Shown piece after piece: positions 33,421 through 50,745 of a stretch of DNA of 51,223 nucleotides. The DNA lies in contig JAGVGJ010000029.1 in assembly GCA_020057115.1 (NCBI GenBank), positions 1 to 51,223 of the forward strand. Direction: 5' to 3'. The notes beneath the pieces were generated by a model. That model did not search any database. It saw only the letters and a program-made list of their open reading frames with translations, and was not told the origin of the DNA. The DNA is from Candidatus Omnitrophota bacterium. Its GTDB lineage: Bacteria; Omnitrophota; Gorgyraeia; 2-01-FULL-45-10. The position numbers were made by a program, and so were the translations under genes. Position 1 is the stretch's first letter. Every line of letters starts with the position of its first letter.

Positions 33421-33421
33421 C

Positions 33422-33607
33422 TTATCCTTTTAATGTCTCCCGCCATTCTTTAATCTTGGCGATACACTCGTCCGTAAACACCGGCCAGTCCTTGTAATCA
33501 CGCTTGGGCTTAACCCAACCCTTGCGGATCCAATTGATCATAGTCTGCCGGTGCACGCCCAGCAATTTTGCCGTCTCTGTCATGGTGTAAGTTTTCATAT
33601 TTGGCAC
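33422..33607 (-). CDS. Excisionase-family / MerR-like HTH DNA-binding protein
   Basis: TMTETAKLLGVHRQTMINWIRKGWV. It ends 1 nt before the integrase start. Confidence 0.7.
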   Translation of the reverse strand: MPNMKTYTMTETAKLLGVHRQTMINWIRKGWVKPKRDYKDWPVFTDECIAKIKEWRETLKG

Positions 33608-33646
33608 CTTTGTCTAATGGTGTCCAGTATACCGTATTATACAACC

Positions 33647-33844
33647 CTATACAAGCGGTTTCTTCTCCAAGTCATAACAATTTAAGAACATCCTCGACAT
33701 CAACTCTACGCCTTCATCAAAGGATTTACGAGCCTCTCGAATTTCGACGCTGGACAGACCCCGATCCTTCAGCTTTATCTCTAAAGCGTCCCAGCCTCGC
33801 GGCGTGACTACAGCTTCAATGATTGTGCTCGCTACCTTGATCAT
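33647..33844 (-). CDS. Hypothetical small protein
   Basis: The ORF is co-oriented with the island genes. No motif recognised. Confidence 0.35.
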   Translation of the reverse strand: MIKVASTIIEAVVTPRGWDALEIKLKDRGLSSVEIREARKSFDEGVELMSRMFLNCYDLEKKPLV

Positions 33845-34019
33845 ATTTTTCTACGTCAATAGGACATTCGGACATCGCAAATGTCCGGTTTTGTCGTGTT
33901 CTTAAGCACAAAAACGGCCCATACGACCACGACACGACATTTTCAAAATCCGACATCACTCACAGACTTCGCCTCGCCCGACCCGCGGCCGACACCCCTC
34001 CCGAAGGACCCGCCGATAG

Positions 34020-34320
34020 GTTTGTGAGCAATGTGAGGCTAAAATCCCTATCCTCACACCTGCCATGCTTGAGGCGCTATGTGCGCCTCTTCCTATATAT
34101 TTATTGATTTCTAAAAAGAGAGGGAATTTAGCCTCACAAACCTCACAAAAACTTATAACCCCTTGATGACTGTAGGCTTGACCTTGTGAGCACGCCTGTG
34201 AGCAAGCGTGAGCACTCGTGAGCAAACTCACACTTTCAGAACGGCCGGTCACTGTCCACCTCCGCGCGATCCTCACAAAGCACGCCCCTGCTCACACCTT
34301 CCTCACGCCCCTCCTCACAC
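34020..34320. repeat. Iteron cluster with AT-rich segment (putative replication origin of the element)
   Basis: GTGAGCA occurs at 34186, 34198, 34208 and 34218 (12/10/10-nt spacing). Further GTGAGCA/GTGAGGC copies lie at 34024 and 34033. Inverted (C/G)CTCAC(A/G) copies lie at 34052, 34132, 34141, 34271, 34290, 34301 and 34313. An AT-rich stretch spans 34091..34130. Confidence 0.6.
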
Positions 34321-36602
34321 GACTTTGACTCGGTTCTTCTGATAGTAAAAAGTCTCCGGCCAGTGCCGGGTTCGCGCTTGTCCTTCTTCACGATATCGAC
34401 TCCGACATTGCGCATGACCGGCGCAATACGCAGTAACTCCGTTGAAAGCCACTTAGCGGTCTTGGGCATGCCTTTCTCATCGTCGTCATTGTGGGTTACC
34501 TCATGCAAAAGCTCAGCGGCCGACCCCTCCCAATAGCCTGCGTGTTTGTCCATTAGCTCGATCAGCCTTTTAGCAAACGTGCTGTCGTCCGCAGTGTCCT
34601 GCCATTTTCGATCTACAGACTCCTGATACTTTTTGAAAAACTCATCCTGCGAATAACCAAGCACCTCTGCCAGAGCGCCTCCCCACTGGGCGAAATCCGA
34701 CATTCGAAACTTCTCATGTCCGGTAATTTGCGAAACAGTATTCATGGCTTTTGAAATGGCAGTAAAGAATCCACCCAGAATCCCGGGAAGCTCACATTGC
34801 CATTCGTCTTCCATGGTTTTCTCAGCGCGACTCTTCTTCAAAACCGGAATGTCAAAGATGATGGCCCGGTCAAGCAGATCGGCCCGCCACAAGGACGTGC
34901 CGATACCATTCAAAACAAAACACCGCCTGTAAGAGCGAATAAACTCATCGTCATTGGTATAAAGGCATCGCTTCATATCGCCTTCACCCGTAACGCCACG
35001 GCATAGAAAGTCGCTGAACCACTCGTGAATTTTAGAAATATTGTCAAAGGTACTAATCCAGTGCTTTTCCGCAGTCATCTGCGCTTGCTCCAATTCTTTG
35101 GGAGTTGAGATCAGCATGACTTTGGAAGGATCGCCCAAACCTTTGATCTTGCGAGAATTGTTCGATTTGCCGGAGCCCTGCTCACCGGTCTGGCTTAAAA
35201 TGACATGCGGAATATTCGGAATGAAAAATGATGCGATGGCAACCATGAAAAGACAATAATCATCAAGGTTCACATTACAGAAACGTAAGATCGCCTTAGG
35301 ATCCCCACCCTTAACCGGAATCACCTGCTCTGCTTGATGTTGATAACGCCTGAATATTGGCGGTAACGGCATAACGTCCCAGCCGGTCTCATCGATTACC
35401 ACGCCGCGATAATCCGGGGTCGTAAGGTCATAATAGATTTTCCCGCCATGCCAGCCAACGCGATTAAATAGCTCCACCTGCCGAGCACTGCCACAGCGCG
35501 CCTCAACCTGAATCCGCGCTTGATTAAGAGATTCGCTTTTCGGCGGCACCCCAAACCTCTCACGAAACCGCGTCGCCTTCCAATTCCTGAAGCGGACACT
35601 TGAAGTAAGACACACCTCAAAATGGCTTTCCACCGGAAGCACCACGAATGCGTTGCCATGCTGATCGCGAAAGAAATCCTTAATGTTCTCCTCGCAATCG
35701 CGGGTAATAATCTCGCCTTGCGTGAGCTTAGCCTTAGCAACCGGCCCCGGAACGCCATTGCCTCCATAAACCTCCCGGCACCCGCTGATAGCCTTCTCAA
35801 TAACCGACTGGCCATAAGTCCGGCCATCACCAAAATGCTTCTCATCCCACTTGGGCCGCATGAGTCCGGACTGGCGAAAGAGCGAATCCATAAGCCCGGC
35901 GTCTTTACCCGTCCAAAAGGCCAGCTTGTTGCCAAGAGCAAAATCTGCTTCGCTTTGAGATGGATAATCGTTTTGCCACTGGCCGGAATAGAGCCGCTGA
36001 AACCTCTCCGCGTCTTGGCTTTTTGCAATTACGGAAAGAATATCGTCCGCTGGCCCTTTATCTACAAACCGGCTGAATATAGTTTTAAGCGCATTAGTAC
36101 ACTCGTTAAGTTCAGCCGGATAATCCGTAAGCCGGTTGCCGGTTACAGTAAAGAACCTGCCCTTGGTATAAATCTCAAGCCCGATCTTTGATATCTTGCA
36201 GGCCCGAGCGATCGAACCTCTGCAAAGAATATGAATACCGGTGCCGCTGGGCGAGTATTCAGAATACGAATTGAGTGCTTTTAGGATTTCCAAAGCATAC
36301 GGCGCGATCACGCCGTCTTTAACGCAGTGGTCAATATCCACGCCCACATAAGGCGGTTGAAACATAAAGCCAACACCCGCGTATCCGCGCTGACTCACCA
36401 GATCAACGGCAGTCTGATAATCTGTCCATGTGCTGGGATCGTTACTTTTGGCAGGACGTCCGGTCAGGACGTTCATAGGGACTTTATCAATGCGGTCTTT
36501 GTTACGCCTGAGCTGATATCCAACCCAGCTCGGTAGCTTAAGTAATTCCTGCGGTATGATCTCTTCCATTTTTCTCTTCTCTTTTCTTCTCTCGTCTTCC
36601 AT
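34236..36602 (-). CDS. Bifunctional AEP primase-polymerase / P-loop helicase (phage-plasmid primase type)
   Basis: Prim-Pol motifs are GVGFMF..VGVDIDHC and SPSGTGIHILC. The SQSEADFALGNKLAFWTG..LFRQSGLMRPKWDE motif is also present. Walker A is GEQGSGKS. Confidence 0.8.
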   Translation of the reverse strand: MEDERRKEKRKMEEIIPQELLKLPSWVGYQLRRNKDRIDKVPMNVLTGRPAKSNDPSTWTDYQTAVDLVSQRGYAGVGFMFQPPYVGVDIDHCVKDGVIAPYALEILKALNSYSEYSPSGTGIHILCRGSIARACKISKIGLEIYTKGRFFTVTGNRLTDYPAELNECTNALKTIFSRFVDKGPADDILSVIAKSQDAERFQRLYSGQWQNDYPSQSEADFALGNKLAFWTGKDAGLMDSLFRQSGLMRPKWDEKHFGDGRTYGQSVIEKAISGCREVYGGNGVPGPVAKAKLTQGEIITRDCEENIKDFFRDQHGNAFVVLPVESHFEVCLTSSVRFRNWKATRFRERFGVPPKSESLNQARIQVEARCGSARQVELFNRVGWHGGKIYYDLTTPDYRGVVIDETGWDVMPLPPIFRRYQHQAEQVIPVKGGDPKAILRFCNVNLDDYCLFMVAIASFFIPNIPHVILSQTGEQGSGKSNNSRKIKGLGDPSKVMLISTPKELEQAQMTAEKHWISTFDNISKIHEWFSDFLCRGVTGEGDMKRCLYTNDDEFIRSYRRCFVLNGIGTSLWRADLLDRAIIFDIPVLKKSRAEKTMEDEWQCELPGILGGFFTAISKAMNTVSQITGHEKFRMSDFAQWGGALAEVLGYSQDEFFKKYQESVDRKWQDTADDSTFAKRLIELMDKHAGYWEGSAAELLHEVTHNDDDEKGMPKTAKWLSTELLRIAPVMRNVGVDIVKKDKREPGTGRRLFTIRRTESKSCEEGREEGVSRGVLCEDRAEVDSDRPF

Positions 36603-37366: not shown

Positions 37367-39841
37367 CTATTGGCTTTCATTAGCGGATTCATCATATTTG
37401 ATAAACATCGCCATCGGTACTGATTTTAAGTAATTAATACTTCCGTAAGACAGTAACAGTCGATGAATAGCATTAACTCCAAATCCTCCCGGAGGGATAA
37501 CGCAATTAAGACGTCCCTTGAAAATAGCGACAGGAATATCGGGTGTATTTTTCCTGCTCTGTTTTTGAATCAAATCAAACTCCATAAGCAATTTCTTATG
37601 AGCTCCCACGAGCTCATTCGATAAGATGGGGACAAGCCCATTTATCCGATCTGGATCACATCCCTCCTGCACGGATGCATTGATTCTTCTCAATATATCT
37701 CTGACCAACCCCAACTTTCCGGTCTTACGTATTTGTAAATTTTGCACAGGATTTATTTCAAAAACCATATCGAGCTCGTTCATACATTTGGATAATGGGT
37801 CCCAAGGTGATCCCCGTAATATATCAACAGGATTAACCGCCGCATTAATTTCGCCCCACCTATGCAAATTGTCGGTATACAGAATAGAACCTGTAATCTG
37901 TGCCAAGAAGAACCCGAGTTCAAAATTTGGAGAAAGATGCGATATAAGAAATTGCCCACCTTTTTCTCCACGCGCAACTGGTTGCAATAAAGCTAAAGGA
38001 TCTTCCGCTTGCTTCTTCTTCATATATTCCAGTGTACTTTTTACCTGTTCATCTGACAATTCTGGTAAAGCAGTCTTAATGTTTCGTCTCAAGCTGTCAT
38101 CAGGCATTGCCATCCAGCTTCTTTTAAAATCATCTTTGGTTAATTCCTCCATTGGTTTCATGTGTGCCGGATCTGGTTTCCAATCCTTTAAGCGCGCCTT
38201 TGCCATATCCCAAATTTGCTGTCTGAGAGAGTGATTGAATGTGCAGGGATCAGGTATCAAATTTACAATCCCTGCTTCTATGAATGGCGCAAGTTGCATC
38301 AACAACAATACGTTTTTCAATGTTTCTTGTTTATATTGGCCCGGCGACTCCACGGGACTAAATTCAGGTTTTACATATGCCGGATTCATAAATGGGTTAA
38401 TAACTATAATCTCATCAAAATATAACGAAAAACTTGCTACGTTTCTCAGAATTATCCGAGGATCAATTAAGCCAGAATACAGAGCTCGAAATATTTTATT
38501 GTCTGGTCGAGGCAACATATTCACAACATTTGTTTCTGGCGGCCATAGGCAACCAAACGCTCCATGGATATCTTTTACCTGTTTATCACTCAACTCTTTA
38601 CGCACGTCATCCCATGTTTTCCCTTTGGCCAAACCAAGAATATTAACAACCATCTCGATAAACATCAGGTTTCTTTCGCGAATACTGCGTACTGTAGTTA
38701 TTGGGCGATCGGCTGGAGCTTTGTCTCGACAACATTTTTTATATTTTTTCCCACTGCCGCATATACATGGCTCATTTACTCCAATCTTGCCTGTTCTGGC
38801 CGGTTTCTTTAGATATGATAGATCACCTACGGTGCGACCAAACTCATCTTGATAATGAGTGGATCCGTCTTCATATCCGATGTACATCTCTCCACCAAAA
38901 TGCCATAGCTCATTCTTTGGTGGCAACAGTATCTTTCCAAGCTCTGCCCAATTACCGCAGACATCATGTTCGGGATATAGCCATTTTTTATTGCCAGCGG
39001 CGATATAGCGACGCGCCCTAGCTTTCAAAATATAATTGATTGCTCCCACATCCTCTGGCTTAAGCTTGCGCGACCGAATCATTGTGTCGATACGCGAAAT
39101 TGTTTGCCCAAAATTCCGAGCATTGGTTCTATTAGTAAGCAAATCTGTATTCCGAGGATCACGGGCATACTCTAAATTGGTAAGGATTAAACACCGGTTA
39201 AGATCGAGTGGGACAATTGTTTGCGAGCCCTTGAAGGAAATAGAAGGTTCCTCTGGATACTTACAATAATCAGAGTCTGGAGGACAGGCTGGATTATATA
39301 TAGTTACGGGATGGTCAGTTATTATAAATTTCACGTCAGAATCTTCGGCAGAAACTATTTCTCGCACCGCCTCGACCCACATCGTGCAATGCATTTGACG
39401 AAGCTGTTGCATCTCAAGCATAAGCTGAAGTTGAGTCAAGCGTGGGTATTTAGTTTTTATCCAGTCAAGCCCCTTTGGCGTTCTTATCTTTTGTGCATCC
39501 AAGTACTCAAAGAACTTATTAAATAAGTCGTGCAACTTCGCCATGTCATTATCAATGATGGCGCGAACAGAGGCAGACCCCGCTGAGTCTATAGCCCCGA
39601 ATAAAAATCTTTCTATTTCATCATTCTTTAGGCCAAAGAAGGACGTTGTATAAAGATCCTTTTCCAAAAAACACTGATTAGGCCCCCATCGACAGCAGTC
39701 ATGAAGCGGTATCACCCGCCCATCTGATAAAGTTCGTTTTTCCGGGCAAAGATCCACATAATAAAACGATGTACCTCCGGAAGGAAGGAATCGCTTTTGG
39801 TACCAAACTGGAACATAGTGATTTCGTCTAGTAATTTTCAT
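37367..39841 (-). CDS. Large DUF4238-like protein with internal SEC-C motif and an uncharacterised ~450-aa C-terminal region
   Basis: The N-terminal RRNHYVPVWYQKRFL matches the HYVPxFYL-type start of DUF4238. CICGSGKKYKKCC is a SEC-C metal-binding motif. I recognise nothing in the remainder. Confidence 0.6.
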   Translation of the reverse strand: MKITRRNHYVPVWYQKRFLPSGGTSFYYVDLCPEKRTLSDGRVIPLHDCCRWGPNQCFLEKDLYTTSFFGLKNDEIERFLFGAIDSAGSASVRAIIDNDMAKLHDLFNKFFEYLDAQKIRTPKGLDWIKTKYPRLTQLQLMLEMQQLRQMHCTMWVEAVREIVSAEDSDVKFIITDHPVTIYNPACPPDSDYCKYPEEPSISFKGSQTIVPLDLNRCLILTNLEYARDPRNTDLLTNRTNARNFGQTISRIDTMIRSRKLKPEDVGAINYILKARARRYIAAGNKKWLYPEHDVCGNWAELGKILLPPKNELWHFGGEMYIGYEDGSTHYQDEFGRTVGDLSYLKKPARTGKIGVNEPCICGSGKKYKKCCRDKAPADRPITTVRSIRERNLMFIEMVVNILGLAKGKTWDDVRKELSDKQVKDIHGAFGCLWPPETNVVNMLPRPDNKIFRALYSGLIDPRIILRNVASFSLYFDEIIVINPFMNPAYVKPEFSPVESPGQYKQETLKNVLLLMQLAPFIEAGIVNLIPDPCTFNHSLRQQIWDMAKARLKDWKPDPAHMKPMEELTKDDFKRSWMAMPDDSLRRNIKTALPELSDEQVKSTLEYMKKKQAEDPLALLQPVARGEKGGQFLISHLSPNFELGFFLAQITGSILYTDNLHRWGEINAAVNPVDILRGSPWDPLSKCMNELDMVFEINPVQNLQIRKTGKLGLVRDILRRINASVQEGCDPDRINGLVPILSNELVGAHKKLLMEFDLIQKQSRKNTPDIPVAIFKGRLNCVIPPGGFGVNAIHRLLLSYGSINYLKSVPMAMFIKYDESANESQ

Positions 39842-39982
39842 AATGAATTGAAAACTTTCTTAGGAAGGGATCGATGCGAGGAAAACGATGCTGACTATTT
39901 GTAATAAAAATTCATTTACTCATATGCCCCGGTCGGCCCTTTTATTTTGCTCTATTACAATCATCTGCATGCTTATATATCC

Positions 39983-40285
39983 AATGACGCGACACACTCC
40001 ATCCTGCTTCTGACCATTTTTGTGGGCTACGGAATACGCTCGAATGATCGAATCCGGCCAAGCCAAGAACGAAAGCGACCTTGCCCGCAAGGTCGGCATC
40101 TCCCGAGTCCCCGGATATGGCAATATACGAGCCTTCTAGGGCTTAATGCCACCCTTGTGCAGGCCGTCGAAGCACTGGGCGATCCCATGCCCAAACGCAC
40201 CATAACCGAGAGGCAACTGCGACAGATGCTTAAAGATACCAAAGAGCAAGAAATCTTTACAAGAAAACTTCGAGAAATAGCATAG
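39983..40285 (+). pseudogene. ParB-like HTH gene remnant (truncated and frameshifted)
   Basis: Two frames join to give ..EYARMIESGQAKNESDLARKVGISRV/RIWQYTSLLGLNATLVQAVEAL..ITERQLRQML... This resembles the ParB HTH region. The frames switch at the C-run near 40112. There is no N-terminal domain. Confidence 0.35.
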
Positions 40286-40287
40286 GT

Positions 40288-41277
40288 TCACACACTGCAA
40301 AGAAACCAATAACCATCTTTCTGGAACGTTTTCCCGTTTGTAAAATCCCTAGCAAACATTTCATTCTCGATAAATACTTCAACCTGTTTATCTACGGGAT
40401 AGATATGAATATTGCCGCATTGATTATTTGTAAAATACGGCAGATCCCGATATTGCCAAGCTGAATAAGCTAAATGCTCACTTGGAGCACAGCCAAAAAA
40501 AGATATACGTGGTTTTACTACATCCAAAAAAGAATAATCTCTATCTGATTTGCGGCCATGGTGCGGCGCAAATAAAACCGCGGCATTTTTTACTGAGTCC
40601 TTGTGATTCTTCAAAATATACCCCCAAGTATTATCATTTGAATCACCTGGAAATATTATTTGTCCGGCAGAACTGCGATAAGAGATAACATATGAAGCAT
40701 CATTTATGTCCCCGCTTTCATTAGCGGATGCGATTAATGCATCATGTGGTGAAATAATAGAAAGATAATCGCCATGCCCTTCGCCTTGATCATTATCCGC
40801 ACTCCAGTATTTACCATGCGAACTTGCTCTTGGTGAAACCACGTTTACAGATGATACCTTACCGTTGATAATATTTTCATAACATTCCCAATCTTCTTTC
40901 CTGAAATCAGTTTCTTTCTCAAAATCTGGGGGTTCTCTTCTAGCGCCACAATCCCAAAAATTATGAACCGCTTTCTCAGAAAATAATCGGTCAAGACCAT
41001 CCATGTGATCCATATCCGGATGAGTCAAAACAAAGCGCCAAATTTCGGATAATCCACGTGATGACAAATATGTTATTGGATTTGTAGGATTATCTCGCAT
41101 TCCATAGTCTCCTGGAATCTTTTGCGAGTAGGAAGACTCCCTCATCTTATCCAAGAATGATTTTTCCTCAAGATTGCCACAACAAATATCGATCATGGTT
41201 GCCCGGCCACTTGACCGTTCGATGATAAAACAATCTCCCTGTTTAACATTAAGACAATGAATCTTCGGATCCGGCAT
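40288..41277 (-). CDS. ComEC-type metallo-beta-lactamase-fold hydrolase (329 aa)
   Basis: IHCLNVKQGDCFIIE, LTHPDMDHMDGL (HxDxDH) and LFAPHHGRKSD. Its start overlaps the preceding TM gene by 29 nt. Confidence 0.75.
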   Translation of the reverse strand: MPDPKIHCLNVKQGDCFIIERSSGRATMIDICCGNLEEKSFLDKMRESSYSQKIPGDYGMRDNPTNPITYLSSRGLSEIWRFVLTHPDMDHMDGLDRLFSEKAVHNFWDCGARREPPDFEKETDFRKEDWECYENIINGKVSSVNVVSPRASSHGKYWSADNDQGEGHGDYLSIISPHDALIASANESGDINDASYVISYRSSAGQIIFPGDSNDNTWGYILKNHKDSVKNAAVLFAPHHGRKSDRDYSFLDVVKPRISFFGCAPSEHLAYSAWQYRDLPYFTNNQCGNIHIYPVDKQVEVFIENEMFARDFTNGKTFQKDGYWFLCSV

Positions 41278-41728
41278 TTTTGCTGTCCTTGTTAGCAGTA
41301 CGACTTTTCTTAATACCCCAAGTCACCTGAGCTATATCTTCGATTTTCTCGACAAATTTATCTACGTTAAGTCCTGCCGCGAATGCAAAAGCATAAAAAG
41401 CAAGATTAGATGGGGATTCGACCTGTTTCGCTTCTAACATTATTAATCCGGCCTTTAGAAAGAGAAAACTCGCGGCTCCACAGATAAAACTAGTAAGCGG
41501 ACGAAGAAAGTACCAAGGATACCAAACCTCACTCCATCGCTGAAAAACCGAAGCGTTCAGATATACCCCCCTTAAACAATACAAAACACCGCCTATGCCA
41601 CCGGAAATACTACACATCAAAACGAGTTGAACTGTTTCTGGCATGATGATCTTTTTCTGGATCAACGCCCACAAAGCTATAGCATACAAAGCTAGAATAA
41701 AGATTAAATATGCTGATACCTTTTTCAT
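41249..41728 (-). CDS. Small integral membrane protein (about 4 TM helices)
   Basis: The start is taken at MKKVSAYLIF (41728), with GGAGGTG upstream. This lies 14 nt after the stop of the preceding gene. It has four hydrophobic segments and a charged C-terminal tail. Confidence 0.6.
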   Translation of the reverse strand: MKKVSAYLIFILALYAIALWALIQKKIIMPETVQLVLMCSISGGIGGVLYCLRGVYLNASVFQRWSEVWYPWYFLRPLTSFICGAASFLFLKAGLIMLEAKQVESPSNLAFYAFAFAAGLNVDKFVEKIEDIAQVTWGIKKSRTANKDSKNAGSEDSLS

Positions 41729-41741
41729 ACACACCTCCGGA

Positions 41742-43139
41742 TTATGTCTTATACCCATTGACAACGAATATCTTCGTAATATCGAGCTTCTTCTTTTTAT
41801 TATGAACTCTGCAACGGAGTAGATGCGTCCCTTCGAAAGCAACGTCGCGTCCGAATGTCAACTTGTCAGTCTTTTCACTCTTATCTTTATAATATATCTC
41901 TTGGTGACTATGATGCTCCCCAATTCCACCATTTGAAACCTCCCACCATACATCAACTTGGTCATAAGGATCGAGCAGGCCACCATGAGCATTCGCCATA
42001 AATTTCAAGGATGACTTAATCGGGAAATATTCACCGGATTTTTTATTTGTTACACTCCCATTAAAAGTCATCTGGCACGAAATATCAAATGTTGGGCTAC
42101 CGCTACCACCGCGGCTATAAAATCTACTTGGGGTGACAGTCCATTTGCCATCGCTATCTATAAAGCCAGAAAAATGGTCTTTTTCCTTTGTAGTATAAAC
42201 TTGCCTATTAGTAGCTTTATTTTTGTAAATAGCCAGAGCCTCAGAATTGGGATGATGAAAGTGGTCATAATCACCGCACGAGATCAAAACAATGTCAGGG
42301 GAAATATGATCAATGTGATCAAGGTATGTCGTTTCCGGATTAGCTTCTATATCTATATGTTCATTTTGCGTCTCATCGGTAAAGAATGACCTCGAGCCAT
42401 GATGGCTTGCCAATAAGATACTTGTTTTTAAGATCCCAGACTCATTAAAACCTGGGATGATCTTTTCTTTCCATGCTTTCCAATCAGAATCGCTTGTCAG
42501 CAACAATGAACGCCCAGCATAGTGAATAGATAAAACCAATGCTTCCGTATGTTGAATCTTTGCTTTTTCAACAAGGGAAGCCTTTTCCGGCATATATTCA
42601 GATGAGCTGAGACAATAAATTTGCGCACCACCATAACTTTGAATCGACGTGGTGTTCGGAACCGGAACAAAAACAGCGCTATCCCCATACTGATCCATCA
42701 ATGTTCGGCGTAGTCGCATGTAATACTGATAATCTGCGTCTTGGGTGGTTTCACCGCTTCGACCGGAATCCCATATTGATTTAATTTCAAAAACATCATA
42801 AACATCACAGAGCCCCCGATAATGATCGAGATCCCTATGCGAATTCACATAAATATCGACCCATTGGACGTTCTGTTTCTTTGACGTATCGTAACGACTG
42901 GGTATGTGCTGTCCTAAAAATTTTATTATGGCATCTTTATCGTCTTGAATTACGTTACAATCATAGAGCATGGTTGTTTTGTCAGGGAACACAATCAAAA
43001 CCATTAACCCCTCGCCAACGTTTAATACATGAAAAGATAACGGATTCTTTTCCGATGAGGTATAGAAAGCTAAGGGCTGAAAATATTTCTGAGCGGCTTC
43101 TTTAGCCATTTTTAACAAATCCGTTAATAATTTATCCAA
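41742..43139 (-). CDS. ComEC-type metallo-beta-lactamase-fold hydrolase with beta-rich C-terminal extension (465 aa)
   Basis: FHVLNVGEGLMVLIV, NSHRDLDHYRGL and LLASHHGSRSF. It is paralogous to 40288..41277. The TTG start has GAGAGG 5 nt upstream and lies 12 nt after the ygjP stop. Confidence 0.7.
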   Translation of the reverse strand: MDKLLTDLLKMAKEAAQKYFQPLAFYTSSEKNPLSFHVLNVGEGLMVLIVFPDKTTMLYDCNVIQDDKDAIIKFLGQHIPSRYDTSKKQNVQWVDIYVNSHRDLDHYRGLCDVYDVFEIKSIWDSGRSGETTQDADYQYYMRLRRTLMDQYGDSAVFVPVPNTTSIQSYGGAQIYCLSSSEYMPEKASLVEKAKIQHTEALVLSIHYAGRSLLLTSDSDWKAWKEKIIPGFNESGILKTSILLASHHGSRSFFTDETQNEHIDIEANPETTYLDHIDHISPDIVLISCGDYDHFHHPNSEALAIYKNKATNRQVYTTKEKDHFSGFIDSDGKWTVTPSRFYSRGGSGSPTFDISCQMTFNGSVTNKKSGEYFPIKSSLKFMANAHGGLLDPYDQVDVWWEVSNGGIGEHHSHQEIYYKDKSEKTDKLTFGRDVAFEGTHLLRCRVHNKKKKLDITKIFVVNGYKT

Positions 43140-43151
43140 AGTAACCTCTCA

Positions 43152-43862
43152 TCAAATCACAACCCTTTCCAGCCTTGCCTTGCGTTTCTCCCAATCCGGC
43201 ATGACCAGCGAAAGAAAGTTATAAAACTGCCTCGTATGATTGGGATATTTCAAATGGCACATCTCGTGCATAATCACGTATTCAATACAATGCGAGGGCG
43301 CCTTGATTAGCTCGGTATTCAATCCGATCCTGCCTTTAGTGTGAACGCAACTACCCCAGCGTGATTTCATAGATTTGACATCGATAGCCGGAAGTTTTAT
43401 GCCGTATTTTTCAAGCCGTTCATGACATCGCTCGGTGATCACGGCAAACATCTGCTGAGCGCGAGCACGATACCATTCATATACCAATCTTTTGGTTCGC
43501 GGTCGGCTGTCTGTCCGCAGGGAATAGACGAAAATATATTTACCCTTTAATTTGACATCCTGTTTCTTGGCCAGCATCACCTTTAATCGATACTGCCGTC
43601 CGTAATAATAATGTGTTTCACCGCTAATAAATTGCCTTGGCGGTTCCTTGGGCATATATGACTTGAAGTAATTAATTTGTCTCACGATCCACGAAGCGCG
43701 CCTCTGAACCTTGCGCAGTACCTTTTCGATCGAAAAGGTATGCGGTGCGCTTACACCTACGGACATATCCGGCATTACGCTGATCCTCAATGCTTTTCGG
43801 GGCTTCTGTTCAAGCGAGAAACGGATTGTTTTCTGTCCAAAGGCAACTGCGTGCTCTGTCAT
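43152..43862 (-). CDS. YgjP-like M48-family zinc metallopeptidase (DUF45)
   Basis: RWGSC...HEMCHLKYPNH (HExxH). It overlaps the hsdR stop by 4 nt. Confidence 0.8.
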   Translation of the reverse strand: MTEHAVAFGQKTIRFSLEQKPRKALRISVMPDMSVGVSAPHTFSIEKVLRKVQRRASWIVRQINYFKSYMPKEPPRQFISGETHYYYGRQYRLKVMLAKKQDVKLKGKYIFVYSLRTDSRPRTKRLVYEWYRARAQQMFAVITERCHERLEKYGIKLPAIDVKSMKSRWGSCVHTKGRIGLNTELIKAPSHCIEYVIMHEMCHLKYPNHTRQFYNFLSLVMPDWEKRKARLERVVI

Positions 43863-46800
43863 TTTGCGTACCTTCGCTTAGCAATATTGATGATCTTTTC
43901 CATAATAAGGTCAATCTCTTCGTAACTTAGGCCGAGCTTTGTCTTATCAGCGAGATAGTCTTCGATCTCGTTAAGCATTTTATTCTGGATATCTGTCTTA
44001 AGGTGCCAATCCACCACGATGTTGCCCTGAATAATCGCATCGATATCGATAGCGATCTTGGCCGAAACGCCTTTGTCGTTGTTGCGCTGGTTTACGGACT
44101 CATAAACAACTCCATAAAACGCCTTTGCCACATCCTTATCCTGCAAGATATCTGGTATATCCGTATCCTTGCGATCTCGAACGGCCTCCATGATTTCCTT
44201 AGCTGTTAGAAAATACTGCGCATCGGTGATTCGCGCCAGCCTGTAATCGTCAATAGCTTTCTTTAATAGATTGGAGAATTTTTCATAGAATACTGGGTCT
44301 TCATCATACTTTTCTTCGATTGTCCGCTTTGTCCTATGGGCTATCATGTCCGCTTTTGCGGCCTCACCGACAGCCTTCGTGACTTCCTTCTGGAAACTCT
44401 CCTTGTCGAAAATATTCACCGGGTCGGTGATTTTGATAACTTCATCCGAGCTGACGTAGGTGTTTAGCAGTTTTTGGATTTTATCCTCATACTCCTTGAA
44501 GTCGACAACCTCAGCATAGCGTTTTTTGACTGACATCCGCAATTTCTGGAAGAACTTAAAATCATCTTTATATTTACTAATCTGCTTCTCCGGCACTTCT
44601 TCGTAAAACTTCTCTGATGAAAGTGCGATGCTCAGCGTTTTCGAGAAGGCTGTCAACCTCTCGTAAAATTTATGTCTGAGCTCTTCATCAAACAAGAACC
44701 GTTCATATTCTTCCTCGTCACGCCGATTCTTAATCTCTTTAAAGATGTCCCACAGATCAGCATATTTCTGAGGAAGGGTTTTTACTTCCTCTGCAACATT
44801 AAGCAGTATGCCTTCCAAGTCCTCCTTATCAAAACCGGATAGCTCCTCATACGCGGTTAATGCAAGATCAAGCTCTCCAAGAATGCCGTAGTAATCCACA
44901 ATAAACCCGTAGTCTTTGCCTTCATGAATACGGTTAACCCGAGCAATGGCCTGTAGAAGGGTGTGTTCCTTCATGGATTTGGCAATATAGAGAACCGTAT
45001 TCCGAGGCGCATCAAAACCTGTCAGTAGCTTCTCAACAACGATCAGGATCTCCGGCTGTTCCGAGTGCTTAAACGATGCGATGACCTGCTTGTTATATTC
45101 TGTTTCACTGCCAAAGCGTTTCAGTATGTTCTTCCAAAACTTTACGACATCTTCCGTGGGCTCCTCGTAAACATCCTCATAACCCTCGCGCTCATCGGGT
45201 GCCGAAATAACAACCTCAGAAGAAACCTTACCAATCTCATCAAGACACTTCTTGAACTTCAATGCCGCGGCCTTGGAATCAGTTGCGATCTGCGCTTTAA
45301 AGCCTGTACCTTGCCAGTTTTTGCTGTAGTGTTCACTTACGTCGTAAGCGATCATGAAAATCTTCTGATCGGTAAGATTGAGCTTTTCGATTTTGCTAAA
45401 TTTACGTTTAAGATCGATAACCTGTTTCTCTGATAAATCCTTACAAACCCGCTCAAACCATGTGTCAATCGGCTTCTGATCTACATCCTGAATGACATGA
45501 CGTCCCTCATAAAGCAAGGGAACAACTGCCTTGTCTTCAACTGCATCGTTAATGGTGTAAACTGGCTGAATAAACCCGCCAAACTTTTCTGCTGTACTTT
45601 TTTCACTCTTGAGTAGAGGTGTGCCGGTAAAGCCTATGTAGCAAGCATTGGGCAAAACCTTTTTCATTAAGGCGTGGGCGATGCCGTACTGGCTTCTATG
45701 GCTTTCATCTACCAGAACAAAAATATTCTCCGACATGACTTCCACAGAACGCTTATTGAGACCCGCTTGAAACTTATCCAACACGGATGTAATTATCGAC
45801 TTTTTATTTTTATCTAAAATCTCCATTAAATGAGCGCCTGTTTTGGCCTTTTCCGGCTCCATCCCGCAATGCTTAAACGTATCGCAAATTTGCTGATCCA
45901 GATCGATCCTGTCGGTAACAATAACAATTCTTGGATTGGGGATAGACGGACAAAGAGCCAATGCCTTGGCCAGCATAACCATTGTAATAGACTTACCGCT
46001 TCCCTGAGTGTGCCAGATTACCCCACCTTTGCGCTTGCCCTCCTGATATTGAGAAACGCGCTCAATCGTATTTTTGACTGCGAAATACTGCTGATGCCGG
46101 GCAATCTTTTTCTCACCGCAGTCATAAATGACAAACTGACGGCTCAGCTCCAGCAAGCGATCCGGCTTCAACAGAGAGTAAATGGCTCGGTCTTGATTAG
46201 TGACCAGACGTCCTTCAGACTCAATCGAATCAAAATAGCGCCTGACATACTGGAAGCGTGAAGCAAAGAGTTTGTCCTTAGTATCGAGGGATAACGGTTT
46301 ATTGACCAAACTCTTAACCTCTGTCTCAAAATCTTCCTTCTCCTTCCAGACTGCCCAAAATTTATCAGCTGTACCGGCGGTGCCGTACTTAGCTTCGTTC
46401 TTACTGACCGCCATAAGCACTTGTGAATAGACAAAAAGACCCGGGATAAATTCATCAGTTTGATTGCGAAGGTTCTGAGAAATAGCTTCCTTTATGGGTT
46501 CTTTAATATCCGGGCATTTGCATTCAATGACCACGAAGGGAATACCATTTACAAAAAGGACAAGATCCGGACGACGATGCGCCTTTCCATCAGACTGCAT
46601 AACCTCGAACTCTTCCGTAACGTGAAAGACGTTCTTGTCGAGATTATCCCAATCAATAAACTTGAGATCAAAGCTTTTGGTATTCCCAAGGATCGTCTCC
46701 TCAAAGCTCTTACCAAGCGACAGCAGGTCATAAATCTTTTCATTCGTGCGGATAAGCCCATCATAGGGAATATTTTTTAACGTGCTGATCGCGTTCGTAA

Positions 46801-47020
46801 TGTTGTTATTGGAAAATGAATATTCGCCCCCCTTATATAAGATCGTATTGATCTGATGCAGTTGCTTTTCGAGGATAGCCTCAAGAATTACGTTCGACGT
46901 TTTCCCACCGCGAGCAATAAGCGCTTCCTCTGGGGTAAGGTAAGTATATCCGAGGTTAATCAGCAACTGTAACGCCGGAACCTGTGAAATATGATCTTCC
47001 TTAAATGACGGCGTATCCAT
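43859..47020 (-). CDS. hsdR: Type I restriction endonuclease subunit R
   Basis: N-terminal nuclease region (PDLVLFVNGIPFVVIECK), SF2 motor (HTQGSGKS, VDESHRSQ), 1053 aa. Confidence 0.9.
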   Translation of the reverse strand: MDTPSFKEDHISQVPALQLLINLGYTYLTPEEALIARGGKTSNVILEAILEKQLHQINTILYKGGEYSFSNNNITNAISTLKNIPYDGLIRTNEKIYDLLSLGKSFEETILGNTKSFDLKFIDWDNLDKNVFHVTEEFEVMQSDGKAHRRPDLVLFVNGIPFVVIECKCPDIKEPIKEAISQNLRNQTDEFIPGLFVYSQVLMAVSKNEAKYGTAGTADKFWAVWKEKEDFETEVKSLVNKPLSLDTKDKLFASRFQYVRRYFDSIESEGRLVTNQDRAIYSLLKPDRLLELSRQFVIYDCGEKKIARHQQYFAVKNTIERVSQYQEGKRKGGVIWHTQGSGKSITMVMLAKALALCPSIPNPRIVIVTDRIDLDQQICDTFKHCGMEPEKAKTGAHLMEILDKNKKSIITSVLDKFQAGLNKRSVEVMSENIFVLVDESHRSQYGIAHALMKKVLPNACYIGFTGTPLLKSEKSTAEKFGGFIQPVYTINDAVEDKAVVPLLYEGRHVIQDVDQKPIDTWFERVCKDLSEKQVIDLKRKFSKIEKLNLTDQKIFMIAYDVSEHYSKNWQGTGFKAQIATDSKAAALKFKKCLDEIGKVSSEVVISAPDEREGYEDVYEEPTEDVVKFWKNILKRFGSETEYNKQVIASFKHSEQPEILIVVEKLLTGFDAPRNTVLYIAKSMKEHTLLQAIARVNRIHEGKDYGFIVDYYGILGELDLALTAYEELSGFDKEDLEGILLNVAEEVKTLPQKYADLWDIFKEIKNRRDEEEYERFLFDEELRHKFYERLTAFSKTLSIALSSEKFYEEVPEKQISKYKDDFKFFQKLRMSVKKRYAEVVDFKEYEDKIQKLLNTYVSSDEVIKITDPVNIFDKESFQKEVTKAVGEAAKADMIAHRTKRTIEEKYDEDPVFYEKFSNLLKKAIDDYRLARITDAQYFLTAKEIMEAVRDRKDTDIPDILQDKDVAKAFYGVVYESVNQRNNDKGVSAKIAIDIDAIIQGNIVVDWHLKTDIQNKMLNEIEDYLADKTKLGLSYEEIDLIMEKIINIAKRRYAK

Positions 47021-48066
47021 TATTTCTCCCCGTCCTTGTGAGTAATTCTTTTAATTTCCTTATCGAAATCACTCTCATAAATCTTATCCTGAATTACGCT
47101 GTATTTATCAAACTCGGCCTCTGCAAATGCTTTGGCGATCTCAGCGCTGACTTTGCCGGGATTATCAAGGATCTCCTTCTCATTGAACCGTAAAAAAGAA
47201 TCCAACTTCTTGATCCAGTCGTTCATATACATGACTTTTCGGTTCTGGGCCTGCAATTCCGCATAATCCAGATACAAGGAAACAATCCGGTTGAGAATAT
47301 TTAGCTCTGCTTCCTTCAAATAATTCTTGGCGATTGAAACATCTGTTTTACGGATACGCCCTTCCGGAGAATTCTTCCATGAAGTAAGCCCCATATTTTG
47401 TTTACTGCTATCCGCGCGGTGACGAATGATCTCCGCGGCCGTTTGCCTGCTGATGGCCCAATGCAATTTGTTTTGAACGGTTGCGAAAAACAGCTTTGTT
47501 TCCTCGCTGTCTTTCTCATAATCTGCGCTACATTGCGAATAAATATCTGTGACTTTCTGATAAAAGCGCCGTTCGCTTGAGCGGATATCGCGGATCCGCG
47601 CCAATTGCTCTTCAAAATAATCTTTACCAAAAATATTGTTGGGATTTTTCAGACGCTCATCATCCATGGTAAAACCTTTAATGATGTATTCTTTCAAGCG
47701 TTCAGTCGCCCAGATACGAAATAAGGTGGCCTGCTTTGAACTGACACGGTACCCCACCGAAAGAATGGCATCCAGATTGTAAAACTCTACACTCCTCGTT
47801 ACCCGCCTTGCGCCCTCGGTTTGAACTTGTGCAATTTTTGCACAGGTTGAATTCTGATCCAGTTCACCTTCCTTGAATATATTCTGGAGATGCTTGGTTA
47901 CCACGCTTCTTTCCACGCCAAAAAGATCCGCAATCTTCGCCTGAGTCAGCCAGATATTTTCGTTACGCAAGAAAATCTCAACTTTAACCTTGCCGTTGGG
48001 CGTGGTGTAAAGCAGAAATTCCGTAAAACTGTTATTGGGAACTATATCATATTTCTTTTTACTCAT
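47020..48066 (-). CDS. rhuM: RhuM-family protein
   Basis: VKVEIFLRNENIWLTQAKIADLFGVERSVVTKHLQNIFKEGEL...YNLDAILSVGYRVSSKQATLFRIWA is the characteristic RhuM sequence. Confidence 0.8.
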   Translation of the reverse strand: MSKKKYDIVPNNSFTEFLLYTTPNGKVKVEIFLRNENIWLTQAKIADLFGVERSVVTKHLQNIFKEGELDQNSTCAKIAQVQTEGARRVTRSVEFYNLDAILSVGYRVSSKQATLFRIWATERLKEYIIKGFTMDDERLKNPNNIFGKDYFEEQLARIRDIRSSERRFYQKVTDIYSQCSADYEKDSEETKLFFATVQNKLHWAISRQTAAEIIRHRADSSKQNMGLTSWKNSPEGRIRKTDVSIAKNYLKEAELNILNRIVSLYLDYAELQAQNRKVMYMNDWIKKLDSFLRFNEKEILDNPGKVSAEIAKAFAEAEFDKYSVIQDKIYESDFDKEIKRITHKDGEK

Positions 48067-49244
48067 TGCCTTGCCTCCTTCACCCTAATCTTGCCGGTTA
48101 AAAGTTTTTGCATAAGACTTTTTTTCTGACTTTTTAAAATATCAAGCGTCGAAGATAGAATTTCAAGCTCGTTATCCGCAGATAAAAGAATTTTTGCAAT
48201 TTTCTTCTGTTCCTTTTCATCTGCTGGAAACACAAGTGGCAATTTTTTTATATCATTGCTATTCACCGCAGTAAACGTACTGCCCTGAGCATAGCTATTC
48301 CATTGCGTTTCAAAAGAAAGCAGAAATTGGTATAAATACTCGTTGTCAATTTTTTCACCTCTGATTGCGCACACGCCTCTACCAATACATGCCTCGTGCA
48401 TGCATTTTGCAATTGTGCCCACAGGAGCCCTAACCGACATGATAATATCTCCTATATAAGCTCTCTTAGTTATTTGCTTTGTGTATGTCGTGGGGAATGT
48501 CTTTCGATCTTTACAATCTCCGTTTCCCTGTATTAAAGGTAAGCCAGCACGGTCTTCGTTATAAAATTCTGAGCTTGGTGATTGCCCCATATTTATTTTT
48601 GCGACTTGCCCTAAAGACGTTCTCTCAAGCCGCTTACCGTTAAATTCCTTAAACCGCATCGTGCCGGTCAATAATTTCTGCATCAGACCTTTTTTGAGGT
48701 TGGTCTTGGCGTTTATAAGCTTACTCAATGTATCAATCGCTTGATCCCATGTTAATATGACCTCCGCGATTACTTTTTGCTCCTCTACCGGAGGCATAAT
48801 AAACTGAAGATGCGAGAAGTCTTTTCGATCCAGTACACGGTTTCTGCCAGCACCACCGGGTGAAATAATCCCAAGGTTATAAACAAGTCTTTTCGACGGT
48901 ATTAAATATCGGAAGAATTCCGGAACAACCACATTTCGATCAAAAACATATGTCGGGAAACGATGTGATACTAAAGCGCCTTCATCGCTTTTATTTACAA
49001 GAGCAACCGCGCCCTCCCAAGCAAAGGTAATATTTACGATAAGATCATCTTTTTCCACTGCAAAAAGGGTTTCCATCATAACCTTGTCCGGATTCTCAAC
49101 TTCACGAACAAAAGTTCCCTTGCAGTGGCTACGAATACCTAAAGAGCGATACTTGACCTTAGGTTTGTCAACCCCGCGAGGAGTGAATTTGAGAAAATCT
49201 TTAATCTCGAGCTCTTGCCAGCCTCGAGGGATAGTTCGCGCCAT
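48063..49244 (-). CDS. hsdS: Type I restriction-modification specificity subunit
   Basis: Two target-recognition halves, each ending in the conserved helix KKGLMQKLLTG / KKSLMQKLLTG. Confidence 0.85.
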   Translation of the reverse strand: MARTIPRGWQELEIKDFLKFTPRGVDKPKVKYRSLGIRSHCKGTFVREVENPDKVMMETLFAVEKDDLIVNITFAWEGAVALVNKSDEGALVSHRFPTYVFDRNVVVPEFFRYLIPSKRLVYNLGIISPGGAGRNRVLDRKDFSHLQFIMPPVEEQKVIAEVILTWDQAIDTLSKLINAKTNLKKGLMQKLLTGTMRFKEFNGKRLERTSLGQVAKINMGQSPSSEFYNEDRAGLPLIQGNGDCKDRKTFPTTYTKQITKRAYIGDIIMSVRAPVGTIAKCMHEACIGRGVCAIRGEKIDNEYLYQFLLSFETQWNSYAQGSTFTAVNSNDIKKLPLVFPADEKEQKKIAKILLSADNELEILSSTLDILKSQKKSLMQKLLTGKIRVKEARQ

Positions 49245-49245
49245 A

Positions 49246-50745
49246 TTAAAACCCCAGTTCCTTTAAGTGCCCCGCCATTTCTTTTTGCACACCAGAGAGT
49301 TCTTTTTCCAATACTTCGATTTCTTTTTGAGTTTTTGCGATATCAACCGCTTCTTCTTCCTCAAATATATCCACGTAGCGAGGAATATTAAGGTTAAATT
49401 CATTTTCCTTAATCTCGTCCAATGTCGCCCGATATGAATATTTTTCATTCGTTTTGTATTCTTTATACGTCCGCATGATCTTCTCAATATCCTCCGGACG
49501 AAGTTTGTTTTGAGTTTTATCTTTTTCAAACTCACGACTGGCATCGATAAAAAGCAGGTCTTTCGTTTTACGACCTTTCTTAAAGAAGAGAACAGCTACA
49601 GGAATACTCACTCCATAAAATAGATTTGGGGGTAAACCAATCACGGCATCAAGAATATTCTCCTCAACAAATTTCTGACGTATAACACCCTCAGCGCCAC
49701 CTCTAAATAACACGCCATGAGGCACAATAACTGCCACCCTGCCTGACTCATTCATAGTCTCGACCATGTGGGTCACAAAGGCATAATCGCCCTTACTCTT
49801 TGGGGGCACGCCACGGTGGAAACGCCTAAACTTATCTGCCCCGGCATTCTCTGCGCCCCATTTGTCGAGAGAAAAAGGAGGATTTGCAGTAACTATATCA
49901 AACTTCGTCAGACTATCGTTCTCGATGAGCTTGGGATTATTAAGCGTATCGCCCCACTCAACCCGGGCGTTGTCGATCCCATGCAAAAACATATTCATCA
50001 TACAAAGAGCCCATGTGCTTCCATTGCTCTCTTGTCCGTATAGCGAGAAATTATGATCCTTAACTTCTTTGGATACCTGTATCAATAAGGATCCGGAACC
50101 GCATGCCGGATCACAAATACGCTCGCCCGATTTCGGGGCAAGCAGTTTCGCCAATAAAACAGATACTTGTTCAGGCGTATAGAACTCACCACCCTTTTTG
50201 CCTGCACCGCTGGCAAATTTTTCAATAAGAAACTGGTACGTGTCTCCAATGATATCCGCATTGCCGATCTTTGCAGATCTCAAATCCATACGCTCATCAG
50301 CAAAATCCTCAATTAAATGTTTGAGGCGTTTGTTGCGGTCTTTGGTCTGACCAAGGTTTGACTCAGAATTAAAATCGATGTTACGGAAAACGCCCTCGAG
50401 CTTGGCTTTGTTGGCTTCTTCAATACCTTCCAGCGCCAGATTGATAATTTCTCCGATGTTGCTGGCGTCTCGCTTACCATAGATGTAGTCAAAATCACAA
50501 TTCTCAGGCAGAACGAACCGCTCGCGCTCCATTTTCCGTTTAATGCGCACAGGATCGCTACCATGCTCTTTTTGGTATTGCTCTTTTTTGTCCTTCCACT
50601 GGTCGCTTAAATATTTAAGGAAGAGAAATACAAGAATATAATTCTTGTATTCAGATGGATCCACAACGCCGCGGAAAGTATCGCAAGCCTTCCACGCAAC
50701 CGCGTTTATTTCATCCTGATTAGTTTTACCGTTAGCCATGAACAA
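49246..50745 (-). CDS. hsdM: Type I restriction-modification DNA methyltransferase subunit
   Basis: HsdM N-domain, DPACGSGS (SAM motif I), ANPPF (motif IV). Confidence 0.9.
   Translation of the reverse strand: MFMANGKTNQDEINAVAWKACDTFRGVVDPSEYKNYILVFLFLKYLSDQWKDKKEQYQKEHGSDPVRIKRKMERERFVLPENCDFDYIYGKRDASNIGEIINLALEGIEEANKAKLEGVFRNIDFNSESNLGQTKDRNKRLKHLIEDFADERMDLRSAKIGNADIIGDTYQFLIEKFASGAGKKGGEFYTPEQVSVLLAKLLAPKSGERICDPACGSGSLLIQVSKEVKDHNFSLYGQESNGSTWALCMMNMFLHGIDNARVEWGDTLNNPKLIENDSLTKFDIVTANPPFSLDKWGAENAGADKFRRFHRGVPPKSKGDYAFVTHMVETMNESGRVAVIVPHGVLFRGGAEGVIRQKFVEENILDAVIGLPPNLFYGVSIPVAVLFFKKGRKTKDLLFIDASREFEKDKTQNKLRPEDIEKIMRTYKEYKTNEKYSYRATLDEIKENEFNLNIPRYVDIFEEEEAVDIAKTQKEIEVLEKELSGVQKEMAGHLKELGF

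Follow-up and report, generated by a model that had tools for sequence, protein, structure and literature searches.

The window analyzed here is the whole stretch of 51,223 nt that comprises positions 1-51,223 of contig JAGVGJ010000029.1 of a Candidatus Omnitrophota bacterium (GCA_020057115.1). It contains three adjacent genes on the minus strand, which are named g1, g2, and g3 in the following. The gene g1 encodes a hydrolase of the metallo-beta-lactamase (MBL) fold that is fused to a C-terminal AGS-C domain, g2 encodes a small membrane protein, and g3 encodes a stand-alone MBL-fold hydrolase. Comparison with related loci revealed that the conserved unit of this module is one MBL together with one small membrane protein, and the module is real and probably defensive.

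An initial annotation had described the three genes at these positions with lengths of 465, 159, and 329 aa, and this was confirmed. The gene g1 extends from 43139 to 41742 (465 aa) and starts with a TTG, g2 extends from 41728 to 41249 (159 aa from an ATG, versus 197 aa for the mechanical open reading frame (ORF) from an upstream TTG), and g3 extends from 41277 to 40288 (329 aa). The start of g1 was also as described before. It lies 12 nt downstream of the accessory gene of a restriction-modification (R-M) system, which encodes a YgjP-like metallopeptidase and has its stop codon at 43154-43152, and this junction (43140..43151, minus strand) includes the sequence GAGAGG (43150-43145). The g2 stop and the g3 start indeed overlap by 29 nt, but the gap between g1 and g2, given as 14 nt, was found to be 13 nt when the DNA was read directly. 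The gap includes a GGAGG. No promoter-like site was found on the minus strand upstream of g1, and none was found between g1 and g2. The short junction and the lack of a promoter-like site upstream of g1 indicate that g1-g3 are co-transcribed with hsdM-hsdS-rhuM-hsdR-ygjP, and thus, judged from the DNA sequence, they look like the tail of this type I R-M operon. A terminator-like hairpin at 40095-40076 on the minus strand, about 190 nt past the g3 stop, is the probable end of the operon. An ORF of 112 aa on the plus strand (39947-40285), convergent to g3, is unlikely to be a gene and was dismissed: no family could be assigned to it, and it overlaps the hairpin as well as the end (40031) of a sequence block that is shared with a related genome.

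The MBL catalytic core of g1 comprises residues ~30-340 (42120..43052, minus strand) and contains the HxDxDH motif. The motif pairs quoted earlier for the two enzymes, i.e., NVGEG/NVKQGD, SHRDLDH/THPDMDH, and ASHHGSRS/APHHGRKS, are present, and they are conserved in 24 homologues of g1 and 32 g3-type homologues. In total 275 homologues of g1 were found, most of them full-length with 445-465 aa. In the alignment of 24 of them (A1), the residues H101, D103, D105, H106, H197, D217, H246, and H247 were invariant. The AlphaFold2 model of g1 had a predicted local distance difference test (pLDDT) value of 86 and a predicted template modelling score of 0.88. The top Foldseek match of the core was the beta-lactamase-like domain of ComEC (9ic4, E 1.4e-15, TMt 0.81), followed by the phosphocholine esterase Pce and then by PNGM-1 and CPSF73. 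Weak profile matches of the core were to Lactamase_B_2, ComEC_Rec2, and 6A-MBL_enzyme, and ComEC was the best PDB sequence match for g1 as well as for g3. Direct reading of the N-terminal sequences showed no signal peptide in g1 or g3, and both are soluble proteins.

The beta-rich C-terminal domain that had been noticed in g1 is real, and it could be identified as AGS-C. It comprises residues ~348-463 (41751..42098, minus strand) and forms an Ig-like beta sandwich of nine strands, which was modelled with pLDDT values above 90. The identification came from a match to Pfam PF18134 (1.2e-6, 29 bits versus a gathering score of 26.7) and from a Foldseek match to 9ard, in which PycC, a Pycsar cyclase, is represented by its Ig-like AGS-C domain (E 8e-5). 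In addition, models of PADLOC for cyclases of the cyclic oligonucleotide-based antiphage signalling system (CBASS) matched g1 within residues 358-459 only, i.e., in the AGS-C part. The motifs WEVSNGG and HLLRC are conserved in the domain, with invariant residues in alignment A1. AGS-C has been described as an Ig-like domain of about 18 kDa that occurs on about 40% of the cGAS/DncV-like nucleotidyltransferases (CD-NTases) of type I CBASS and also on Pycsar cyclases, and it has been proposed to be a phage-specificity domain that tunes phage sensing, in operons with effectors that mostly have two or four transmembrane (TM) helices (bioRxiv 10.1101/2023.05.21.541620). When only the AGS-C domain of g1 was searched against 1.84 billion representatives, 43 matches were obtained, and the g1-type AGS-C constitutes a small separate subfamily. 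Twenty of them were scanned with Pfam; the AGS-C-positive ones bear an MBL, and the remainder were generic Ig-repeat proteins or fragments. A cyclase domain was found in none of the 20, and thus the connection to the AGS-C domains of cyclases is based on the profile match to PF18134 and on the match in fold to 9ard. The fusion of an MBL with AGS-C appears to be undescribed in the searchable literature.

The second gene, g2, had been annotated as a protein with about four TM helices, and this agrees with the structure predicted from its family alignment (A3). Four helices were modelled (residues 2-23, 31-61, 67-99, and 108-137), three of them strongly hydrophobic and the last one less so and amphipathic. 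The protein has 3-4 TM helices. Its amphipathic helix at the C-terminus is conserved and carries the pattern AGLNVDKF...WGIKKSR. The family is large, with 632 homologues and identities of 53-97% among the matches listed. Its invariant positions include a GGxGG motif, R53, W72, Y73, R76, P77, K92, E99, and D123, and the charged and Gly-rich ones fall inside the helices. Searches against Pfam, NCBIfam, PADLOC, and PHROGs resulted in sub-threshold noise only, e.g., PHO4, and the best match of the model in a fold search of the PDB had an E value of about 1. Homologues of g2 were absent from the phage records searched, and the 2.9 million contigs of IMG/VR contained three relatives of g2 and one distant relative of g1. 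This near-absence from phage collections indicates that the module is not a phage gene set. A g2-family homologue with 51% identity was found on 180 plasmids of PLSDB, mostly from Klebsiella.

The third gene, g3, has 936 homologues of ~326-332 aa. Its HxDxDH motif is formed by H86, D88, D90, and H91, and it is followed by the HH motif of H239 and H240. In the 32 g3-type proteins, H86, D90, H91, D212, H239, and H240 were conserved to at least 90%. The start overlap with an upstream TM gene also recurs among g3-type proteins. The metal-site residues are conserved in both MBL families, and therefore both enzymes, g1 and g3, are probably active. In profile searches g3 matched PDC-M48B of PADLOC (PDLC04673, 8.8e-27), in addition to weak matches to ComEC and 6A-MBL models. 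The two enzymes had been called clearly paralogous. Their homology was verified (E 7e-6), but with 23% identity over 246 aa they are distant homologues from different subfamilies, and the word "clearly" had to be given up. A role in beta-lactam resistance was dropped, the match to blaAHM had 28.9 bits versus a cut-off of 590 bits.

Next, 56 loci around relatives of g1 and 80 loci around relatives of g2 were compared, complemented by exact-protein look-ups. In these loci, which carry L numbers in the following, genes were called mechanically by choosing the longest ORF, and TM helices were counted as Kyte-Doolittle estimates. The proposal that MBL-4TM-MBL is conserved as a unit did not hold. 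The exact order g1-TM-g3 was found only in the lineage of the window, i.e., in the Candidatus Omnitrophota metagenome-assembled genome (MAG) at L001, and in L009 from Neomarinimicrobiota. In L001 the block hsdR-ygjP-g1-g2-g3 is 90% identical to the window and ends at window position 40031, and the type I R-M operon has been inherited together with g1-g3 (84-90% identity). In a second Omnitrophota MAG (L002, 7971-10670) decay of the module was observed: two ORFs take the place of g1, g2 is intact, and a deletion of about 1 kb (window positions 41286-40253) removes most of g3. In its inheritance and its loss the module behaves like an accessory set of defence genes. In L009 the order is MBL374, TM, MBL-AGS-C, g2-type TM, and a divergent MBL of 285 aa, and the flanking genes are very divergent.

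A membrane partner is an obligate feature across the family. Homologues of g1 with the MBL-AGS-C architecture had a small membrane protein at most two genes away in 28 of 35 loci under a strict rule and in about 32 of 35 by inspection, and they were almost never seen without an adjacent membrane protein. A second, shorter MBL was present in 13-14 of the 35 loci, and the usual order was short MBL, TM, MBL-AGS-C. At least five families of membrane partners were distinguished, none of them detectably homologous to the g2 family (hhalign probability of at most 1.4%), and among the six families only the PDC-M48A-type, the Csx27-like, and the C6 family were weakly linked with each other (probability 62-80%).

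The g2 family showed the same association from the other side. It adjoins an MBL in 65 of 70 loci. In 36 loci a g3-like MBL lies directly downstream of the g2-family gene, frequently with overlapping start and stop, and in at least 15 loci an MBL (~390 aa) is followed by an E2-E1-JAB fusion and then by a g2-family TM. Triplets of the MBL-TM-MBL type whose first MBL is devoid of AGS-C occur in L058, L065, L115, and L120, and a search of the 80 g2-centred loci revealed no AGS-C. A further arrangement was seen on the Klebsiella plasmid pBckp091-1 (L141, 82336-94698), on which an operon of MBL and E2-E1-JAB is divergent from a gene for a WYL-domain protein and a g2-family gene. The same cluster is present in 36 of 5,426 complete E. 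coli genomes, and PGAP labels this type of MBL as "ComEC/Rec2 family competence protein" or "hypothetical protein".

The genomic context of the module had been read as that of a defence island with an integrase, and the neighbours were indeed found. The type I R-M operon extends over 43152..50745 on the minus strand, upstream of g1. It consists of hsdM (49246-50745), hsdS (48063-49244), rhuM (47020-48066, between hsdS and hsdR; PADLOC PDC-S05, 1e-151), hsdR (43859-47020), and the gene for the YgjP-like metallopeptidase (43152-43862, between hsdR and g1), all on the minus strand; the five genes were confirmed with Pfam. In L001 the RhuM region has given way to a different sequence. The YgjP-like peptidase was considered as an activating protease and dropped, it is conserved in the window lineage only, and none was reported at L142 and L147. 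On the other side of the module a gene for an 824-aa protein with DUF4238 and SEC-C (37367-39841) adjoins g3. It was dropped as a part of the module because it is absent from L001, although DUF4238 recurs near MBL-AGS-C genes in four distant loci (L010:10037-10801, L014:4170-4907, L035:2817-4985, and L142:13590-14648), and it may be a separate defence-island gene. The integrase of the island turned out to be a large serine recombinase of 559 aa (31741-33420, CcrB/XisF-like), which abuts the housekeeping gene miaB (30446-31840). It is followed, within 31741-36602, by a gene for an NrS-1-like primase-polymerase of 788 aa (Pfam). To the left of 31.7 kb the housekeeping genes dnaJ, dnaK, grpE, hrcA, hflX, miaA, and miaB are encoded. 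The GC content drops from about 0.50 to 0.42 from the serine recombinase to the contig end, which indicates that the island spans from about 31.7 kb to the contig end. No tRNA gene was found in the window.

The context of the related loci was similar. A co-oriented type I R-M system lies directly upstream of the module in the window and L001 and also in three distantly related loci, i.e., L011, L142 (2334-10368), and L147 (1-9332). In L142 the MBL-TM-MBL-AGS-C genes begin 3 nt past hsdS. This link may be functional, or it may merely reflect the clustering of defence islands. Other neighbours at related loci were MmeI-like or MvaI/BcnI R-M systems, integrases, a conjugative element, MqsA/SocA toxin-antitoxin genes, HNH genes, and LexA-like repressors. 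The latter combine a LexA DNA-binding domain with an S24 peptidase, are 59-67% identical between loci, and lie upstream of AGS-C-type as well as g2-g3-type modules (L003:6002-6637, L004:6394-7023, L146:6282-6905, and L058:533-1156). They are absent from the window, and their presence hints at a damage-linked regulation in a subset of modules.

The reading that we favour, with somewhat more confidence than doubt, is that g1-g3 form a defence module against mobile elements, which belongs to a family of MBL hydrolases with small membrane proteins that also includes 6A-MBL and PDC-M48, and in which the MBLs would act as DNases under the control of g2. In this module g2-g3 would be the canonical pair of a membrane protein followed by an MBL, with overlapping genes, and g1 would be a second MBL enzyme with an Ig-like AGS-C sensor domain, which probably shares g2 as its membrane partner. 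Both cytoplasmic, metal-dependent ComEC-type enzymes are predicted to be phosphodiesterases, and most likely DNases. The membrane protein g2 would tether or gate them at the inner face of the membrane, probably via its cytoplasmic C-terminal amphipathic helix. A phage cue at infection, sensed through AGS-C in g1 and/or at the membrane through g2, would then switch on DNA hydrolysis; this role of AGS-C is modelled on the one proposed for type I CBASS and Pycsar. The DNA that is degraded may be incoming or replicating phage DNA, and possibly also host DNA, which would lead to aborted infection. On the serine-recombinase island, the module would be co-transcribed with the type I R-M operon as its tail. 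The initial annotation had proposed nuclease effectors with a membrane partner. The ComEC-type MBLs and their membrane partner were found as proposed, and the effector role of the MBLs is plausible by analogy, because related defence MBLs are proven DNases.

Several observations weigh against this reading. PDC-M48 is only a candidate system, and the defence role of pairs of a TM protein and an MBL without Cap2/3 is a prediction. The scores of g1 and g3 with the 6A-MBL model NF058524 (42.7 and 28.1 bits, respectively) are far below its cut-off of 220 bits. The membrane protein g2 matches no defence model, with no PADLOC match at an E value of 0.01 or below. The next-best folds for g1 are those of a phosphocholine esterase and of RNA-processing MBLs. 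Homologues of g1 elsewhere are paired with membrane proteins that are not detectably homologous to g2, and thus the pairing of g1 with g2 is putative. In addition, one g2-g3-type locus lies after glutamate synthase genes, and the gene calls and TM counts of the related loci are crude.

The roles of the enzyme and the membrane protein might also be reversed, as in CBASS. The MBL would then be the sensing or signalling enzyme, and the small membrane protein would be a membrane-damaging effector that leads to abortive infection, which is possible, and in our view unlikely. The MBL would stand in the place of the cyclase in three architectures, namely an enzyme with a TM protein (type I-like), an enzyme with AGS-C and a TM protein, and an enzyme with Cap2/3 and a TM protein (6A-MBL, type II-like). 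Apart from the enzymes described here, AGS-C is found on the CD-NTases of type I CBASS and on Pycsar cyclases, whose operons contain 2TM or 4TM effectors, and the exchange of the membrane partner of g1 homologues among at least five families, mostly without detectable homology to each other and one of them Csx27-like, is a pattern typical of effectors. The MBL proteins of 6A-MBL loci end with Gly in seven of eight cases, as expected of a substrate that is conjugated by Cap2, and the invariant charged and Gly-rich positions within the helices of g2 also fit an effector. However, the MBL enzymes are hydrolases and not nucleotide synthases, defence MBLs homologous to them act as lethal DNase effectors in their own right, and g2, with 159 aa, is too small to accommodate a ligand-binding domain and is similar to known pore formers neither in fold nor in sequence. 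If the roles were reversed, MBL-TM modules would constitute a parallel branch of CBASS/Pycsar-style systems, in which a ComEC-like hydrolase replaces the cyclase and the accessory logic is reused, i.e., the Ig-like AGS-C sensor in type I-like forms such as g1, the conjugation of a C-terminal Gly by Cap2/3 in the type II-like 6A-MBL, and interchangeable small membrane effectors. The window would then hold a composite of two enzymes and one effector. We give this extended version an equally low probability, but if true, activation would run from a hydrolase to a four-helix membrane protein without a ligand domain, either via direct contact or via a product of hydrolysis, and this principle of signalling would be new.

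The three genes might also represent two independent neighbouring systems, i.e., g2-g3 as a complete pair and g1 as an orphan MBL-AGS-C that has lost its own partner or works alone. The g2-g3-type pair stands alone in about 32 loci, and g1 homologues elsewhere have membrane partners of their own, as mentioned above. In L009 the g1 homologue follows directly after a C1-type membrane gene with a start/stop overlap, and the g2-type gene is paired with its own short MBL. We nevertheless regard a separation as improbable, because g1 and g2 are only 13 nt apart, with a ribosome-binding site and no promoter in between, g1 homologues almost always have an adjacent membrane protein, the MBL-TM-MBL arrangement recurs in the 13-14 loci of the g1 family and in the four loci with forms devoid of AGS-C, and all three genes are co-inherited in L001. 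Least probable of all is a device for DNA uptake or processing, in which the membrane protein would be a small channel for single-stranded DNA, with the ComEC-like MBLs degrading one of the strands. MBLs of the ComEC type would fit such a device, and so would a proposal of 2019, as summarised in citing papers, that proteins of the Csx27 family are channels for single-stranded DNA that are encoded with components of natural transformation. The g2-family genes of the Klebsiella and E. coli clusters lie together with MBL, E2-E1-JAB, and WYL genes, and the title of the 2019 study names a ubiquitin signalling network. Against uptake stand the lack of signal peptides in g1 and g3, the position of the module, which lies within an R-M operon of a mobile island, the reported anti-phage role of the relative that contains Cap2/3, and the lack of detectable homology of g2 to Csx27. 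Furthermore, in the window and in those related loci that were inspected, no further competence genes came to notice.

The favoured reading, with the MBLs as nucleases controlled by a membrane protein, and the reading with reversed roles make the module suitable for separating two ideas, i.e., that defence MBLs are always DNase effectors, or that they can act upstream of a membrane effector. The presence of AGS-C on an MBL moves this domain beyond cyclases, and g1 thus offers an independent handle on AGS-C sensing in type I CBASS and Pycsar.

The initial annotation could not match the module to a named system. Such matches were found: g3 matches PDC-M48B, and the g2 family ties the module to 6A-MBL. 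The 6A-MBL system has been attributed to van den Berg et al. 2024 and is listed among the anti-jumbo-phage systems of P. aeruginosa. Its markers are NF058524 for the MBL-fold protein (cut-off 220 bits) and NF058523 for cap2_3 (cut-off 320 bits). Both cut-offs are passed in L057 (2470-6450; 401 bits for the MBL and 557 bits for the fusion protein) and L091 (2386-6453; 436 and 543 bits, respectively), and the next gene at these two loci encodes a g2-family protein that is 66% and 57% identical to g2 of the window, respectively. NCBIfam and PADLOC contain no model for this third-gene protein of 6A-MBL loci, and the systems are therefore under-called at present. The module resembles 6A-MBL in that g1 and g3 share its ComEC-like MBL clade, based on weak profile matches, and in that a g2-family membrane gene adjoins the enzyme genes, which is our own observation and not a published criterion. 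In contrast to 6A-MBL, no E2-E1-JAB (cap2_3) gene was found between 31.7 kb and the window end, where the E1-E2 matches of PADLOC on the DUF4238 protein cover its SEC-C motif only, and g1 carries an AGS-C domain, which the 6A-MBL enzymes do not have.

PDC-M48 is a candidate system of PADLOC, and thus a prediction, with a small membrane protein as component A and an MBL as component B. The match of g3 to component B has been given above, and g1 matches it weakly (~1e-5). The two-gene logic of a membrane protein and an MBL is the same, and clostridial genes beside g1 homologues match PDC-M48A (~1e-15 to 1e-17) and PDC-M48B (5.5e-43). In contrast, g2 has no match to component A, and the hhalign probability between the g2 family and the PDC-M48A-type family is 0.3%. 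The system of the window would therefore probably escape a PADLOC run. The third gene, encoding the MBL-AGS-C, is not a part of PDC-M48. A literature search turned up no paper naming PDC-M48.

ComEC/Rec2 proteins share, in their C-terminal MBL nuclease domain, the fold of g1 (9ic4) and the HxDxDH-type metal site of g1 and g3. The initial annotation had stated that the two enzymes are not ComEC, and this holds. In contrast to ComEC/Rec2, they are stand-alone soluble proteins without the multi-TM competence channel domain and without an oligonucleotide/oligosaccharide-binding (OB) domain, and their TIGR00361 matches (29.5 and 25 bits versus a cut-off of 190) are limited to the MBL part. With type I CBASS and Pycsar the module shares the C-terminal AGS-C on the g1 enzyme and the pairing with a small membrane protein, which is swapped among loci. 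It differs in that the enzyme is an MBL hydrolase, and no CD-NTase or nucleotide cyclase domain is present in g1, g2, or g3.

Defence-associated ComEC-like MBLs are also known from systems with protease-activated nucleases, i.e., Hachiman (HamM), AVAST type 1, Lamassu, and DRT. HamM and VcMBL are DNases, and VcMBL is Zn-dependent and acts on double-stranded DNA (PMC12799240, PMC12642450). The MBLs of the window and their relatives match the models for LmuA, RTasMBL, and the Avs1a MBL, but only weakly in the cases of g1 (4e-5) and g3 (9.8e-9). In contrast to these systems, no trypsin-, caspase-, or subtilisin-like protease partner is encoded at the window, the YgjP-like metallopeptidase belongs to a different class, and a membrane protein is the partner instead.

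The last comparison concerns Csx27, the 4TM accessory protein of type VI-B1 CRISPR systems, which according to citing papers was linked to natural-transformation operons by Makarova et al. 2019. Like g2, it is a small four-helix membrane protein that, according to these papers, is encoded with ComEC-type components. The g2-family genes also lie beside genes for E2-E1-JAB and WYL proteins. WYL-domain proteins are reportedly among the neighbours listed in the 2019 study. In contrast to this resemblance, g2 has no match to the Csx27 models of PADLOC, and the hhalign probability is 1.4%. In two Gastranaerophilales loci (L016:9330-9995 and L022:9324-9992) a Csx27-like 4TM gene (3e-9) is located beside an MBL-AGS-C gene in convergent orientation.

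Taken together, three elements of the picture were already known, i.e., 6A-MBL, the version with ubiquitin-like regulation, as a reported anti-phage system, PDC-M48 as a prediction, and the link of 2019 between Csx27 and natural transformation. The g2 family as a shared membrane component and the composite of two enzymes within a type I R-M operon both appear to be undescribed in the searchable literature. If the module is defensive, it represents a minimal form of the 6A-MBL family, without Cap2/3, and the unannotated g2-type membrane protein is the common denominator of this family.

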